Shown here: positions 2,988-13,305 of the stretch, piece after piece
How positions within the stretch are numbered: the first letter of the stretch is position 1
Layout of the letters: the number at the start of each line of letters is the position of its first letter
IMG/VR virus record: IMGVR_UViG_2690316097_000008
Length of the DNA stretch: 14,055 bases
DNA from: a virus
Lineage: Duplodnaviria; Heunggongvirae; Uroviricota; Caudoviricetes
Direction: 5' to 3' (one strand)
Notes under the pieces: model-generated
What the model saw: only the letters and a program-made list of their open reading frames with translations
Told to the model about the DNA's origin: nothing
Database searches by the model: none
Program-made: the position numbers and the translations under genes

Positions 2988-3111
2988 NNNNNNNNNNNNN
3001 NNNNNNNNNNNNNNNNNNNNNNNNNNNNNNNNNNNNNNNNNNNNNNNNNNNNNNNNNNNNNNNNNNNNNNNNNNNNNNNNNNNNNNNNNNNNNNNNNNNN
3101 NNNNNNNNNNN
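2988..3111. other. Run of N (124 nt), assembly gap or masked sequence
   Basis: Direct observation. It is flanked by sequence repeated at 4264..4288 on one side and by a second nanS-p start on the other. Confidence 1.
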
Positions 3112-3765: not shown

Positions 3766-3977
3766 NNNNNNNNNNNNNNNNNNNNNNNNNNNNNNNNNNN
3801 NNNNNNNNNNNNNNNNNNNNNNNNNNNNNNNNNNNNNNNNNNNNNNNNNNNNNNNNNNNNNNNNNNNNNNNNNNNNNNNNNNNNNNNNNNNNNNNNNNNN
3901 NNNNNNNNNNNNNNNNNNNNNNNNNNNNNNNNNNNNNNNNNNNNNNNNNNNNNNNNNNNNNNNNNNNNNNNNNNNNN
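3766..3977. other. Run of N (212 nt)
   Basis: Direct observation. Confidence 1.
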
Positions 3978-4003: not shown

Positions 4004-4045
4004 NNNNNNNNNNNNNNNNNNNNNNNNNNNNNNNNNNNNNNNNNN
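4004..4045. other. Run of N (42 nt)
   Basis: Direct observation; the island 3978..4003 between the two N runs carries another ccgga-containing hairpin-like sequence. Confidence 1.
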
Positions 4046-4525: not shown

Positions 4526-4598
4526 NNNNNNNNNNNNNNNNNNNNNNNNNNNNNNNNNNNNNNNNNNNNNNNNNNNNNNNNNNNNNNNNNNNNNNNNN
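4526..4598. other. Run of N (73 nt)
   Basis: Direct observation. Confidence 1.
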
Positions 4599-5540: not shown

Positions 5541-6599
5541 TCATCCGTTCTGGCTGACTAAATCCTGTACTTCCCGAACCGTCTGCTCAAAACGTTCAGT
5601 CTCCAGCTCAACGCCAATTGCACGACGCCCGAGCGCCAGTGCCGCTTTCACTGTCGAACCCAACCCCATGAAAAAATCTGCAATCAGGTCACCCGGACGA
5701 CTGCTAGCGCTGATTATCTGCTGCAGCATTTCTGCCGGTTTTTCGCACGGATGTTTCCCGGGATAGAACTGCACCGGTTTATGCGTCCACACATCGGTAT
5801 ACGGCACCTGCACCGTCACGCCAAAATACCGCCGCAGATGTTTATATTCACTCAGCAGCTCCGCATACTGCCGGTTCAGTGAGGTATACGTATCCACCAG
5901 CTGGTGGTGGAGCTTTTCCAGTTCACCACGCCGATGCTTCTCTTCTGCCACCCGGGCAAACAGCGCCTGTAATTTCAGATAATCGCTTTCATTCGGCAAC
6001 TGCCACTGACCGGCACTGAACCAGTGCGACACCATGTTTTTCTTTCCTGTGGCATCTGCAATCTGTTTTGCCGTTATCCCCAGGGCAGCTCGCGCATCAC
6101 GAAAGTAAGAAATCAGCGGGGCCATCACATGCTGTTTCAGTGCACTGCCCTTCGCCGCATACCCGGCATCTTTCGGACGATACGGCCCCTGATAATGTTC
6201 CGCGAACAGAATGCGCTCTGTGGCGGGGAAATACGCCCGCAGGCTTTCCTTGTTGCATCCGTTCCAGCGTCCGGACGGCTTCGCCCAGATAATATGGTTC
6301 AGCACACTGAAGCGTTCACGCATCATGATTTCGATATCAGATGCCAGGCGATGACCACAGAACAGGTAAAGACTTCCGGCAGGTTTCAGCACCCGCCAGA
6401 ACTGCGCCAGACACTGGTCCAGCCACTTCAGGTAATCATCGTCGCCCTTCCACTGGTTATCCCAGCCCTCAGGCTTCACTTTAAAGTACGGCGGGTCCGT
6501 GACTATCAGGTCAACAGAATTTTCGGGTAACGACCGGATAAATTCCAGGCAGTCGGCGTTGATTAACTCACAACTGGATATTTTTACAGCATTAAGCAT
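5541..6599 (-). CDS. Orphan DNA methyltransferase (beta-class; N6-adenine or N4-cytosine)
   Basis: 352-aa ORF with ATG start. DLIVTDPPY catalytic motif near the N-terminus and FFMGLGST (FxGxG AdoMet motif) near the C-terminus give the motif IV-before-I order of beta-class amino-MTases. No restriction endonuclease gene is adjacent. Weak Shine-Dalgarno. Confidence 0.85.
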   Translation of the reverse strand: MLNAVKISSCELINADCLEFIRSLPENSVDLIVTDPPYFKVKPEGWDNQWKGDDDYLKWLDQCLAQFWRVLKPAGSLYLFCGHRLASDIEIMMRERFSVLNHIIWAKPSGRWNGCNKESLRAYFPATERILFAEHYQGPYRPKDAGYAAKGSALKQHVMAPLISYFRDARAALGITAKQIADATGKKNMVSHWFSAGQWQLPNESDYLKLQALFARVAEEKHRRGELEKLHHQLVDTYTSLNRQYAELLSEYKHLRRYFGVTVQVPYTDVWTHKPVQFYPGKHPCEKPAEMLQQIISASSRPGDLIADFFMGLGSTVKAALALGRRAIGVELETERFEQTVREVQDLVSQNG

Positions 6600-6691
6600 G
6601 GATCATTAAGCCTGTCTCTGATAGGCTCATTCTGCTTTTGCGCAAAGCAGTGGGCCTGAGGTTTGCTTGTGAACCCAACGCATGAGCAGAT

Positions 6692-6722
6692 GGCTGGTGG
6701 GTGCCCCTAACACCCACCAGCC
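6692..6722 (-). other. Very stable hairpin, 12-bp perfect GC-rich stem with 7-nt loop, in the HTH-MTase intergenic region
   Basis: ggctggtgggtg-cccctaa-cacccaccagcc. No U-tract follows on the minus strand, so it is not a classic intrinsic terminator. Confidence 0.6.
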
Positions 6723-6735
6723 GCCCATTTACCAC

Positions 6736-6763
6736 AAATAAAAAAGCCTTCACTGCGGAAGGC
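6736..6763 (-). terminator. Intrinsic terminator downstream of the small HTH ORF
   Basis: Minus-strand RNA reads gccuuc-cgcagu-gaaggc followed by uuuuuuauuug; the hairpin overlaps the ORF stop codon. Confidence 0.6.
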
Positions 6764-6947
6764 GTCTGTAACAACCGAACTGATAGTCTGCCAGACCCGC
6801 CATAACCAGCTGGGTCAGTATTAACTGGCAGCGTTCGCGTGAAAGGTAAGTATTCTGCGCTATCTCCCCGACTGTCGCCGGTTCGGTAACGCTTAATTCA
6901 TTAAACACCACTCTGGCGGTTTCTGTCATATCCTGCTGTTTTAGCAT
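6750..6947 (-). CDS. Small helix-turn-helix protein (65 aa), putative transcriptional regulator
   Basis: ATG with AAGGAAAAG Shine-Dalgarno 6-7 nt upstream. The segment TVGEIAQNTYLSRERCQLILTQL has HTH character. It lies between the pR'/tR' region and the MTase. Confidence 0.6.
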   Translation of the reverse strand: MLKQQDMTETARVVFNELSVTEPATVGEIAQNTYLSRERCQLILTQLVMAGLADYQFGCYRRLPQ

Positions 6948-7063
6948 GTCTTTTCCTTTTCCGGTTAACGTGACACACCAATAACTCTTGTCGAAAAAGC
7001 CAGCAAGCTGAAAGACAGGTATTCACCGCCACCAGCGCGTTTACTGTACTGACGCGATTTCAG

Positions 7064-7091
7064 TCATAAAAAACCCGCTCGGCGGCGGGTT
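7064..7091 (-). terminator. tR'-like intrinsic terminator about 40-65 nt downstream of the late promoter start site
   Basis: Minus-strand RNA reads aacccgc-cgccga-gcggguu followed by uuuuuuaug (plus-strand hairpin 7072..7091 preceded by ataaaaaa). Confidence 0.6.
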
Positions 7092-7126
7092 GTAGAAACT
7101 CTTCTAACGTCAGGCATAAAACGCCC

Positions 7127-7166
7127 ATCGTTATGACGAATTTACCACAGATTCCGGAAAAATCAA
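7127..7166 (-). promoter_or_regulatory. pR'-like late promoter with lambda-type promoter-proximal pause element (Q utilisation region)
   Basis: Minus strand: -35 TTGATT (7166..7161), 16-nt spacer, -10 TAAATT (7144..7139), then CGTCAT and AACGATGGG at about +1..+9. Recalled lambda pR' is TTGACT...TAAATT TGACTC AACGATGGG. It starts 5 nt after the Q stop codon. Confidence 0.65.
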
Positions 7167-7171
7167 CCTTG

Positions 7172-7993
7172 TTACCTAGTTACCTTTTTTAACTGCCGCT
7201 CAGCCCATGCTTCTTCAATATCAAACCGGGTCACCAGCGCATCATAGAATTTCTTAACTGTTTTTTCCCATGACGCGCGTGTTATCTGGTTTGTCACCTC
7301 GCATATAGCATTAAATGCCTCCGTTGATGGTAGTCTTTCATAGCCACGACCACCACAACGCTGGCAGTCTCTGATAACAGGCATACCACGTTTTACCGAC
7401 TCTTCACGATGAATGGCGACACCACGCCCACGGCAATCCTTACAGGCGGTGGAAACCTCACCCTTTCCGCCACACTCCGGACAGGCAACTTTTACCACCT
7501 CCCTGACTTTTTTCCATTCTTCCCAGTAAGACGGATACACACCTTTCGTACACTTTGCCCATACCGGCGGCTTACCATCCGGATACTGGATCTTGTTTGT
7601 AAAAACCTCGCTTTCAATAAATTTTTTTCCGTGACAGCAGGGGCACTGTTTTTTGCTCGCCGCGCTACGGGCATAATCTTCAAACGCATACGAAGCCATA
7701 ATACGCATCACTGCCGGTTTTATTTCTGCCGGGAGTTTTCTTAACGCCGCCACGCGATCACACCGACTGAGTGCATATTCTGTCAGCAATTCTGTTGCCC
7801 GCTCTCTGTCATTCATACTAATGCCCATTTTCCCAAGGAACGCAGAAACCCCCATCTCAGCCCGATTCTGTGTCATGCCCTGCGCGGCCATCACATCAGT
7901 GATACTCAGCGCATCTTTCGACGTTGAGGCCGATGCATCAGTCAGGCCGGGGGATTTTGGGGAGTAGTATTTCGGTAAATCTTCCAGTTTCAT
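7172..7993 (-). CDS. Q: Late-gene antiterminator Q (QuuQ/Qin-type, zinc-binding), copy 1
   Basis: 273-aa ORF. N-terminus MKLEDLPKYYSPKSP...SITDVMAAQGM and C-terminus ...QLKKVTR match recalled E. coli QuuQ, with several CxxC pairs. Its start overlaps the rusA stop (ATGA) and the pR' promoter follows immediately downstream. Confidence 0.8.
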   Translation of the reverse strand: MKLEDLPKYYSPKSPGLTDASASTSKDALSITDVMAAQGMTQNRAEMGVSAFLGKMGISMNDRERATELLTEYALSRCDRVAALRKLPAEIKPAVMRIMASYAFEDYARSAASKKQCPCCHGKKFIESEVFTNKIQYPDGKPPVWAKCTKGVYPSYWEEWKKVREVVKVACPECGGKGEVSTACKDCRGRGVAIHREESVKRGMPVIRDCQRCGGRGYERLPSTEAFNAICEVTNQITRASWEKTVKKFYDALVTRFDIEEAWAERQLKKVTR

Positions 7994-8095
7994 TTTTTGA
8001 CCTGCCCTTCAAGCATTATGGGATAAATCTTCACCCCCAGACGTCCACCAGATACTGGCTGAGCACGAACGATATTGATTTCATCAAACTGCTCA
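7990..8095 (-). pseudogene. rusA: rusA 3' fragment (about 35 C-terminal codons), cut off by the N run
   Basis: Near-identical to the 3' end of the rusA copies at 8849..8955 and 10592..10700. Confidence 0.6.
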
Positions 8096-8106
8096 NNNNN
8101 NNNNNN
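8096..8106. other. Run of N (11 nt) at a duplication junction
   Basis: Separates the rusA 3' fragment from sequence internal to Q copy 2. Confidence 1.
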
Positions 8107-8852
8107 AATTTCTTAACTGTTTTTTCCCATGACGCGCGTGTTATCTGGTTTGTCACCTCGCATATAGCATTAAATGCCTCCGTTGATGGTAGTCTTTCAT
8201 AGCCACGACCACCACAACGCTGGCAGTCTCTGATAACAGGCATACCACGTTTTACCGACTCTTCACGATGAATGGCGACACCACGCCCACGGCAATCCTT
8301 ACAGGCGGTGGAAACCTCACCCTTTCCGCCACACTCCGGACAGGCAACTTTTACCACCTCCCTGACTTTTTTCCATTCTTCCCAGTAAGACGGATACACA
8401 CCTTTCGTACACTTTGCCCATACCGGCGGCTTACCATCCGGATACTGGACCTTGTTTGTAAAAACTACGCTTTCAATAAATTTTTCCCCATAGCAACAAG
8501 GGCACTGCTTTTTACTCGCTGCGCTGCGGGCATAATCCTCAAAAGCGTACGAAGCCATAATGCGCATCACTACCGGTTTTATTTCTGCCGGAAGTTTTCT
8601 CAACGCCGCCACACGATCGCACCGACTGAGTGCATAATCTGCCAGTAATTCTGTTGCCCGCGCCCTGTCATTCATACTGATGCCCATTTTCCCCAGGAAC
8701 GCAGAAAACCCCATCTCAGCCCGATTCTGTGTCATGCCCTGCGCGGCCATCACATCAGTGATACTCAGCGCATCTTTTGACGTTGAGGCCGATGCATCGG
8801 TCAGGCAAGGGGATTTTGGGGAGTAGTATTTCGGTAAATCTTCCAGTTTCAT
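8107..8852 (-). CDS. Q: Antiterminator Q, copy 2; the last ~25 codons are missing at the N-run junction
   Basis: About 96% amino-acid identity to copy 1 over about 248 residues, with scattered substitutions (G16C, V49F, E64A, H118Y and others), so it is a distinct paralog and not an exact duplicate. The track ORF 8031..8852 reads through the Ns into the rusA fragment. Confidence 0.75.
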
Positions 8853-9223
8853 TTTTTGACCTGCTCTTCATGCATTATGGGGTAAATCTTCACCCCCAGA
8901 CGTCCACCAGATACTGGCTGAGCACGAACGATATTGATTTCATCAAACTGCTCATCGTCCATTAACACTCCCGCATGTGTCAGTGCATCCAGTGGTGCTT
9001 TCAGGATATTGTCCAGGTCACGACGGCGCTTATCCGGTGGCTCTGCAATAATCTTTATCGCCAGTCTTCCGGACAGGCTTAATTTCAGTCGCTGCTGACG
9101 GACAATAAGCGCCACATCCCGGCGATAACGCTCACCGGCTTTTGATACAAAATATGTGTTGTCACGACGTCGCCAGTAAGTATTCACCGTCGGCGGATAA
9201 GGTAAAATAAACTCATGGCGCAT
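8849..9223 (-). CDS. rusA: Holliday junction resolvase RusA
   Basis: 124-aa ORF with ATG start. LPYPPTVNTYWRRR...PDKRRRDLDNILKAPLDALT matches the recalled RusA family including the catalytic Asp cluster. Its stop overlaps the Q start. Confidence 0.85.
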   Translation of the reverse strand: MRHEFILPYPPTVNTYWRRRDNTYFVSKAGERYRRDVALIVRQQRLKLSLSGRLAIKIIAEPPDKRRRDLDNILKAPLDALTHAGVLMDDEQFDEINIVRAQPVSGGRLGVKIYPIMHEEQVKK

Positions 9224-10432: not shown

Positions 10433-10595
10433 TCCCCAGGAACGCAGAAAACCCCATCTCAGCCCGATTCTGTGTCATGCCCTGCGCGGCCATCACATCA
10501 GTGATACTCAGCGCATCTTTCGACGTTGAGGCCGATGCATCAGTCAGGCCGGGGGATTTTGGGGAGTAGTATTTCGGTAAATCTTCCAGTTTCAT
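10433..10595 (-). pseudogene. Q: Antiterminator Q, N-terminal 54-codon fragment (copy 3), abutting the truncated IS2
   Basis: MKLEDLPKYYSPKSPGLTDASASTSKDALSITDVMAAQGMTQNRAEMGFSAFLG; the DNA matches copies 1 and 2 from about 10433 onward. Confidence 0.7.
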
Positions 10596-10972
10596 TTTTT
10601 GACCTGCCCTTCAAGCATTATGGGATAAATCTTCACCCCCAGACGTCCACCAGATACTGGCTGAGCACGAACGATATTGATTTCATCAAACTGCTCATCG
10701 TCCATTAGCAACCCCGCATGCGTCAGCGCATCCAGCGGCGCTTTCAGAATATTGTCCAGGTCACGGCGGCGCTTATCCGGTGGTTCTGCAATAATTTTTA
10801 TTGCCAACCTTCCGGACAGGCTTAATTTCAGCCGCTGCTGGCGAACAATAAGCGCCACTGCCCGGCGATAACGCTCCCCGGCTTTTGATACAAAATATGT
10901 GCTGCCACGACGACGCCAGTAAGTGTTCACCGTCGGCGGGTAAGGTAAAACAAATTCTATGCGCTCGGTCAT
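10592..10972 (-). CDS. rusA: Holliday junction resolvase RusA (second full copy)
   Basis: 126 aa, about 93% identical to the copy at 8849..9223. Its ATG directly follows the stop of the upstream DUF968-like ORF. Confidence 0.85.
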   Translation of the reverse strand: MTERIEFVLPYPPTVNTYWRRRGSTYFVSKAGERYRRAVALIVRQQRLKLSLSGRLAIKIIAEPPDKRRRDLDNILKAPLDALTHAGLLMDDEQFDEINIVRAQPVSGGRLGVKIYPIMLEGQVKK

Positions 10973-12858: not shown

Positions 12859-13014
12859 TTACTCCTCAGGTTCGTAAGCTGTGAAGACAGCGACCTCCGT
12901 CTGGCCGGTTCGAATTCGTACCTCGCAGAGGTCTTTCCTCGTTACCAGTGCCGTCACTATGACGGTTAAACAGATGACGATCAGGGCGATTAACATCGCC
13001 TTTTGCTGCTTCAT
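12859..13014 (-). CDS. hokD: Hok/Gef-family type I toxin, HokD (RelF)-like, 51 aa
   Basis: MKQQKAMLIALIVICLTVIVTALVTRKDLCEVRIRTGQTEVAVFTAYEPEE matches recalled E. coli HokD. AGGAG lies 9 nt upstream of the ATG at 13014. The track ORF extends in frame to an ATG at 13071 with its own GAGG. Confidence 0.85.
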   Translation of the reverse strand: MKQQKAMLIALIVICLTVIVTALVTRKDLCEVRIRTGQTEVAVFTAYEPEE

Positions 13015-13305
13015 AGCCTGCTTCTCCTTGCCTTTCGGCACGTAAGAGGCTAACCTAGATTTGCCGTTCATAGATTGAGCCTCAGATTAATGTTAAGCGT
13101 CTTGCCGGACGCGTAATGTTAACTGGGGCTTTTCTCTATCTGCCTTTTGGTGTTCATGCCTGAGACAGATAGCCTCAAGCACCCGCTGCAATTCTACTTA
13201 ACTCTCCTTTTCCCGCAAACCGTTTTTATCCCCAGCGGCAAATCGAATACACCACCAGCGCCACCGCCATCGCAATTCCTACCGTTGTTAATGCTTCAGG
13301 CCAGG

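Follow-up and report, generated by a model that had tools for sequence, protein, structure and literature searches.

The window, i.e., the whole stretch of 14,055 nucleotides that was analyzed (IMG/VR virus record IMGVR_UViG_2690316097_000008), carries a gene for a Q antiterminator that is directly followed by a promoter-like region and an intrinsic terminator. All coordinates of this cassette are read on the minus strand, and the sequence was examined from position 7260 down to position 6560. The following features could be identified:

7172..7993, minus strand: Q antiterminator gene, 273 aa (Pfam and PDB matches)
7174-7172, minus strand: Q stop codon TAA, then CAAGG (5 nt) before the -35 hexamer
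7166-7161, minus strand: -35 hexamer TTGATT, matching TTGACA at 4/6 positions
7160-7145, minus strand: 16-nt spacer TTTCCGGAATCTGTGG, candidate Q-binding element
7144-7139, minus strand: -10 hexamer TAAATT, the same as in lambda pR'
7138-7133, minus strand: 6-nt discriminator CGTCAT
7132-7124, minus strand: putative sigma-dependent pause element AACGATGGG, consisting of AACGAT (+1 to +6) and GGG (+7 to +9)
7106..7132, minus strand: predicted 5'-terminal RNA hairpin, +1 to +27, -8.6 kcal/mol
7115..7118, minus strand: TATG, predicted pause-stabilizing T-N-Y-G, +15 to +18
7091-7068, minus strand: intrinsic terminator (tR' equivalent) with a 7-bp stem, a 6-nt loop and T6

In an ORF scan of both strands, no ORF of at least 40 aa overlapping positions 7064-7166 was found.

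The Q protein matched PF03589 (Antiterm) in Pfam (1.6e-53), and its top match among solved structures was lambda Q (PDB 7UBM chain Q, E 3.5e-41). PF03589 represents the lambda-Q family, which is distinct from Q21 (PF06530) and Q82 (PF06323) (PMC9388147). In the alignment, residues 1-113 correspond to lambda residues 1-113 and residues 182-273 to lambda residues 116-207. The 68 residues in between (114-181) are an insertion with two extra CxxC motifs, a DnaJ-type zinc finger that is absent from lambda Q, and a weak second Pfam match of the protein was to DnaJ_CXXCXGXG (5.9e-07). This insertion is located at the base of the arm that contacts DNA and sigma, called the "Q arm" in the papers on the lambda structure. 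Judged by these alignments, the window Q is a full-length homologue of lambda Q with an extra zinc-finger insertion, and given its 68 extra residues near the arm, the details of Q loading may differ from those in lambda. The long form of Q (250-277 aa) is the majority form in Enterobacterales. Apart from the insertion, a Q protein from Pectobacterium is nearly identical to lambda Q; it retains the insertion (64 residues), which is scored as gaps in its overall identity of 57%. Because the long form is the commonest and the lambda-like Pectobacterium Q keeps the insertion, the comparison suggests that the 207-aa Q of lambda is a shortened derivative of the long form.

In the preliminary description of this DNA, TTGATT, a 16-nt spacer, TAAATT, CGTCAT and the pause element had been placed 5 nt after the Q stop codon, and every one of these elements was found on the minus strand at the positions listed above. 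Of the 12 hexamer positions, 8 agree with the sigma-70 consensus; because the threshold of the generic promoter scan was 9/12 consensus positions, the site was not listed by that scan. A TG at 7147-7146 (-15/-14) extends the -10 hexamer (TGGTAAATT). The predicted transcription start, placed by analogy with lambda, is 7132.

When the region was compared with lambda pR' taken from J02459 (TTGACT-17-TAAATT-TGACTC-AACGATGGGTTAATTCG; window counterpart TTGATT-16-TAAATT-CGTCAT-AACGATGGGCGTTTTATG), the -10 hexamer TAAATT, the discriminator length of 6 nt and AACGATGGG at +1 to +9 were identical and in register. On the sequence level, this agrees with the earlier proposal of a near-lambda pR' arrangement with a -10-like pause element. 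Also shared with lambda are the homology over the full length of Q, an intrinsic terminator ahead of the late genes, and a 5' hairpin in which AACGA pairs with UCGUU. The two regions differ in the spacer, which has 16 nt in the window and 17 nt in lambda and is of another sequence, with an extended -10 TG present in the window, and in the end of the terminator (∼+65 in the window and +194 in lambda).

The first A of AACGAT is the start of transcription in lambda; this -10-like element is then bound again by sigma region 2, with a pause of the polymerase at +16/+17 (PMC9191641; PMC9388147). T-N-Y-G is the consensus for a scrunched sigma-dependent pause and occupies +14 to +17 in lambda (PMC9191641). 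Compared with lambda, the T-N-Y-G of the window is shifted by +1, and this element varies between subfamilies. By analogy, the pause in the window is predicted at ∼+17/+18, about one nt beyond that of lambda.

The lambda promoter also carries a -35-like TTGACT, located 1 bp upstream of the pause element, for the repositioned sigma region 4. Such a TTGACT adjoining the pause element was not found in the window, where TCGTCA (the last T of the -10 hexamer plus the discriminator) lies in place of the lambda TTGACT and matches TTGACA at 4/6 positions, and this stretch is hypervariable among relatives. Repositioning in lambda places sigma region 4 on the DNA directly upstream of sigma region 2 (PMC9388147). 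For the window, a conserved sigma region 4 site at the discriminator is not supported by the sequence comparison, and TTGACT beside the pause element is perhaps not a hallmark of the whole lambda-Q family.

With hexamers that match the consensus at 8/12 positions only, the promoter-like sequence might be a chance match, and the hairpin behind it might simply terminate the early rightward operon, of which Q is the last gene; it would also halt unmodified transcripts arriving from upstream. However, 15 specified bases are exactly those of lambda pR' and in register; TAAATT-N6-AACGATGGG with at most two mismatches is expected 0.02 times per window by chance, and one exact copy was seen. The same layout also follows Q homologues in dozens of species, with an invariant spacing between the -10 hexamer and the pause element. 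A chance match is therefore hardly credible, and the comparative sequence data effectively refute it.

The recurrence of a lambda-type promoter behind Q was followed in several sets of genomes. A scan of viral contigs with the exact pattern TAAATT-N6-AACGATGGG, in which the -35 hexamer and the spacer were left outside the pattern, yielded more than 120 loci. About a dozen of these were scattered chance matches, and the remaining ones fell into two classes, one lambda-like and one window-like with a near terminator. Loci of the latter class had an almost invariant -35 hexamer and spacer and a freely varying discriminator. Of 5426 complete E. coli genomes, 2461 (∼45%) contain a stretch at least 80% identical to positions 7040-7200, which makes the description of such cassettes useful for annotation.

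The least biased survey consisted of 80 species-level loci that were retrieved by the Q protein alone (Q 37-97% identical). In ∼50 of the 80, the exact AACGATGG lay six nt after a -10-like hexamer and 42-80 nt past the Q stop codon, and most other loci had one or two substitutions in the pause element. The layout recurs after Q homologues down to ∼38% identity in many species of Enterobacterales. In a conservation profile of 35 species-level loci, the -35 hexamer, the spacer, the -10 hexamer and AACGATGGG were near-invariant, and the sequence upstream of the -35 hexamer, the discriminator and the sequence beyond +10 were variable. The first intrinsic terminator of the Q-retrieved loci usually ended at +52 to +74. 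Because of this, the close terminator is, as judged from these sequences, the norm of the family, and lambda, with its 207-aa Q and its terminator at +194, is an outlier that is atypical for its own Q family. In many loci of Enterobacter, Kluyvera and Silvania, among them L128, L129 and L132, an inverted repeat (e.g., GCTCACG...CGTGAGC) was observed between the Q stop codon and the promoter. In these loci the distance from the Q stop codon to the -35 hexamer is ∼45 nt; the window is without the repeat.

The stem of the window terminator (7091-7072) is formed by AACCCGC and GCGGGTT around the loop CGCCGA, with 7 pairs, 5 of which are G-C (-10.6 kcal/mol). A T6 run (7073-7068) comes next, and the hairpin was listed by the terminator scan. 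With +1 at 7132, the stem occupies +42 to +61 and the T-run +60 to +65, as had been expected from the first reading of the sequence, which put a terminator ∼40-65 nt past the start. The very short terminated transcript that this implied also stands, with a predicted RNA that would be ∼63-66 nt long, a size typical of cassettes of the lambda-Q family. In relatives, the terminator stem is kept despite changes in the loop and changes to G-U pairs. The RNA from +1 to the T-run folds as three hairpins (-21.4 kcal/mol, z = -2.0), namely the 5'-terminal one (+1 to +27), a small middle one and the terminator.

No Rfam family was found in 6500-7300 at gathering thresholds. At permissive thresholds, weak matches to Trp_leader, isrK and similar families appeared; they rest on the terminator hairpin and were rejected as homology. 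isrK (RF01394) reached 16.2 bits where the threshold is 50, and the terminator was the sole aligned part.

Lambda (6S RNA) and phages 21, phi80, 82 and P22 are known to give short terminated pR' RNAs, and further ones are StxS of Stx phages and IsrK of Gifsy-1 (PMC7547250). StxS is the terminated pR' RNA of Stx1/Stx2a phages (Sp15/Sp5, 933W type) and is encoded directly after Q; it starts at a constitutive late promoter and stops at tR' in lysogens (PMC7547250). Its primary transcript of 258 nt is processed to 74 nt, and an Hfq-dependent function has been demonstrated (PMC7547250). The window resembles StxS in its architecture, with a predicted short RNA after Q, and differs from it in that StxS is tied to an unrelated 144-aa Q type. 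A link between the window Q and the Q of Shiga-toxin phages was considered and rejected, since StxS goes with that 144-aa type (PMC7547250).

These precedents raise the question whether the main product of the cassette in a lysogen is the short terminated RNA, acting in trans as a regulatory sRNA like StxS in addition to the switch. The lambda type of promoter is constitutive and terminated pR' RNAs accumulate in lysogens; such RNAs have been proposed to be an abundant class, with StxS and IsrK as precedents (PMC7547250). A protected 5' hairpin, a U-rich loop and a terminator ending in a U-tail are predicted for the RNA, and within E. coli there is good conservation of the transcribed sequence. 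Between species, however, the region from +10 to the terminator is kept in structure and not in sequence, which argues against a conserved seed. Together with the lack of an Rfam match above threshold, the isrK match that rests on the terminator alone, and the different Q type that accompanies StxS, this makes a trans-acting role of the RNA unlikely.

The first part of the predicted transcript was found to fold back on the pause element. In the window, AACG pairs with CGUU and GGGCGU with AUGCCU, so that the hairpin includes the RNA copy of the pause element. The probability that nucleotides 2-4 are paired was 0.99, and 3 of 100 shuffled sequences were as good. Nucleotides 1-4 were paired in the minimum-energy fold in 18 of 22 sequence clusters of initial transcribed regions, with 4.1 expected when +10 to +30 was shuffled, and over 70 unique cassettes the mean probability for pairing of nucleotides 2-4 was 0.71 vs 0.36 for the shuffled sequences. 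The position of the 3' arm varies (+20 to +28), and the partner of GGG is CCC, CCU or UUC. When 22 representative initial transcribed regions were aligned with MAFFT and analyzed with RNAalifold, no consensus structure was obtained, owing to misaligned 3' arms and loops of variable length. Folding of each sequence against shuffled ones, contingency counts of 4-mers and a covariance-model alignment were used instead.

In the covariance-model alignment of 48 distinct cassettes, which was fitted to the structure and is thereby biased towards the hairpin, 94.8% of the cells pair, compared with 21-51% when the partner was slid by 1-3 columns. G-U pairs are frequent in the hairpin alignment, and the constraint is therefore strand-specific and acts on the RNA. 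In the 4-mer counts, cassettes with AACG have a downstream CGTT in 42/48 and TGTT in 10/48 cases, and those with AACA have TGTT in 7/7 and CGTT in 1/7 cases (Fisher p ∼1e-4 to 2e-4). Other pause elements with a matched partner are AATGA/TCATT, AACGG/CCGTT and AACAAT/ATTGTT, as well as TAGTGG/CCACTA and GATTAT/ATAATT (in RNA UAGUGG/CCACUA and GAUUAU/AUAAUU), where the variant pause elements represent a handful of independent lineages only. Those of the variants that are rich in AU have a predicted minimum-energy fold other than the hairpin. The covariance model R1 recovered 54 cassettes, none of them with a variant pause element, which made it uninformative on covariation of the outer stem. A statistic on the longest complementary run with G-U allowed (observed mean 4.3 vs 3.6 for shuffled sequences) had no power. 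Reading the conserved CGTT(A) as a -10-like hexamer on the opposite strand (TAACGT) was also considered; this fails in lambda and in the TTCGTT class.

From these sequence comparisons, selection on the hairpin across the Q cassettes of the lambda family is likely but not proven. The wider proposal, that the RNA of the pause element always forms the 5' arm of a 5'-terminal hairpin and that this is a selected, so far undescribed part of the cassette, is put forward tentatively, with the balance lying slightly against it. Literature searches, including one for the hairpin of the lambda 6S RNA, returned nothing on the hairpin or on the promoter type. Concerning its function, the favored guess, which is based on the 5' stem-loops of E. 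coli mRNAs, is that the hairpin shields both the late transcript and the short terminated RNA against decay that depends on the 5' end. Q loading and insulation of the terminator are other steps in which it could take part. The conserved hairpin is of interest for such a possible role in RNA stability or Q loading.

The spacer is the second element that stands out in the comparisons. The block TTTTCC(C/G)GAA(T/A)CTGTG was near-invariant in the 35 loci with a Q that is 50-97% identical, and more distant Q subgroups have other spacers. At the Pectobacterium locus mentioned above, the spacer GTTGAATAACATTGGG resembles that of lambda (TATTGAATAAAATTGGG); the spacer is lambda-like where the body of Q is lambda-like. 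The Q-binding element of lambda is located in the promoter spacer. By analogy, the spacer of the window is a candidate Q-binding element, and its co-variation with the Q subgroup is consistent with this role. The lambda Q-binding element has been described as adjacent to the pause element (PMC9388147). Spacers that co-vary with Q subgroups offer natural specificity variants for the study of Q-DNA recognition.

The cassettes of Qin (E. coli K-12 ydfT/quuQ) and Shigella phage SfV are like that of the window in having a long-form Q of the lambda family, a 5' hairpin, the pause element AACGATGGGC six nt after the -10 hexamer, and a terminator that ends at ∼+62 to +68. They are unlike it in a Q that is 43-44% identical, in the -35 hexamer TTGCAT, in a 17-nt spacer (TTTTCAAAAAATATGGA) and in the -10 hexamer, which is TAAAAT or TAAGAT instead of TAAATT. 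The Qin-type cassette reads TTGCAT-17-TAAAAT-TTTTTC-AACGATGGGC, followed by the terminator. For the Qin copy of K-12, transcription is predicted to start at position 1,642,422 of NC_000913.3 (minus strand) and to end near 1,642,355-1,642,360. On the sequence level, the differences in hexamers and spacer imply a different Q-binding specificity. In the five RefSeq/GenBank records that were inspected, no promoter is annotated at this site and only that of SfV marks a terminator, as a putative rho-independent terminator at the equivalent site. In the literature on the cassettes of Qin and SfV and on promoters of the long QuuQ type, no experimental characterization was found, and prophage sites are not mentioned in the paper on sigma-70 pausing by NET-seq. 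Phages 21 and 82 share with the window the order of Q gene, promoter, sigma-dependent pause, terminator and late genes (PMC9388147); unlike the window, they have Q proteins of the non-homologous families PF06530 and PF06323.

Taken together, the feature is very probably the late-gene regulatory cassette of a lambdoid prophage with a Q of the lambda family. By analogy with lambda we infer where transcription starts and pauses, where Q binds, that the promoter is active and that it depends on Q. Host sigma-70 RNA polymerase would start at ∼7132, using a constitutive promoter whose -35 is weak and whose -10 is extended. Sigma region 2 would then re-bind the -10-like AACGAT (+1 to +6) on the non-template strand, and the polymerase would halt in a scrunched state at ∼+17/+18. 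Without Q, it would escape slowly and terminate at the hairpin and T-run (+42 to +65), releasing an RNA of ∼63-66 nt that consists of the 5' hairpin, the middle hairpin and the terminator hairpin. Q, made just upstream, would bind the conserved promoter spacer and load onto the complex at the pause, where NusA probably takes part as it does with lambda Q. The Q-modified polymerase would resist this terminator and later ones, and would then transcribe the 65-aa ORF, the methyltransferase gene, the cargo region, the esterase gene and the holin/lysis genes.

The cassette would thus mark the start of late transcription of the prophage and the point at which it is held off in a lysogen, which includes any cargo between the tRNAs and the lysis genes, where related phages carry Shiga-toxin genes. 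The logic of the cassette is textbook and the mechanism is unchanged; it is very common in E. coli and unsurprising to a specialist. The conserved 5' hairpin and the specificity variants of spacer and Q are the only parts worth an experiment.

Downstream of the terminator, the following features were identified:

6750..6947, minus strand: first downstream ORF, 65 aa, phrog_331 (phrog match)
6746..6763, minus strand: second intrinsic terminator, -8.9 kcal/mol, overlapping the stop of the 65-aa ORF
6599-5541, minus strand: DNA methyltransferase, next in gene order after the 65-aa ORF
5538-5510, minus strand: promoter-like TTGAAG-17-TATTAT, ∼10 nt upstream of the tRNAs
5500-5251, minus strand: three tRNAs (CAT, TCG and TCT anticodons), CAT being Met by ARAGORN
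4400-4211, minus strand: sRNA STnc100 in the cargo region, 132 bits (threshold 47), with its own terminator at 4241-4220
2678-825, minus strand: sialate O-acetylesterase-like gene (Pfam search)
752-459, minus strand: holin, a late gene

In the nearest complete genome, the order is Q, a hypothetical ORF, methyltransferase, tRNAs, esterase, holin, lysozyme, lysis protein and terminase. The tRNA with the CAT anticodon is annotated there as tRNA-Ile. In the window, the downstream genes are co-oriented and several intrinsic terminators lie among them, an arrangement that fits processive antitermination as far as can be judged from the sequence. The preliminary description had put everything downstream under control of the Q switch. 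This holds in part: the co-oriented genes with terminators between them agree with it, but the tRNAs are preceded by a promoter-like site and STnc100 is a separate gene, and from their sequence context the tRNAs and STnc100 are probably transcribed from promoters of their own.

A very stable hairpin (-29.9 kcal/mol) was observed at 6685-6730 on the minus strand, after the second terminator and before the methyltransferase gene. Its arms (GGCTGGTGGGTGTT / GGCACCCACCAGCC) form 14 consecutive pairs, of which two are G-U, and it lacks a T-run. Runs of N occur at 2988-3111, 3766-3977, 4004-4045 and 4526-4598, mostly in the cargo region (463 N in all), and the content of the slot between the tRNAs and the esterase gene is therefore not fully readable.

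Upstream of the cassette, the window contains a tandem duplication of 859 bp (7248-8989), with copies of Q at 7172-7993 and 8031-8852. The second copy is nearly identical up to residue ∼245, and its last ∼30 residues are swapped at the junction, which holds a run of 11 N (8096-8106). An intact C-terminus of Q and the promoter are found with the downstream copy (7172-7993) only. Two rusA genes are present in the window (8849-9223 and 10592-10972), and the nearest complete E. coli genome has a single rusA and a single Q.

The duplication of Q could be genuine or a problem of the assembly; as an unusual tandem arrangement with N at its junction, it may point to a rearranged or defective prophage. 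In that case the cassette might be an inactive relic of such a prophage, kept by recent descent and no longer acting as a switch in the host. The tandem duplication with its junction N-run and the second rusA point in this direction, and the cryptic prophage Qin of K-12 has the same layout. Against this, the downstream copy of Q is full length and the cassette is intact, as are late genes such as those for the holin and the esterase. Moreover, the elements of the cassette are conserved across genera compared with their variable flanks, which argues for selection on the family. It is thus rather improbable that the cassette is a relic, and the reading as a late-gene regulatory cassette of a lambdoid prophage is preferred. 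Further upstream, beyond the block of DUF968, rusA and Q, a sok antitoxin RNA (hok/sok type I) was identified at 13009-13184 on the minus strand with 112 bits.
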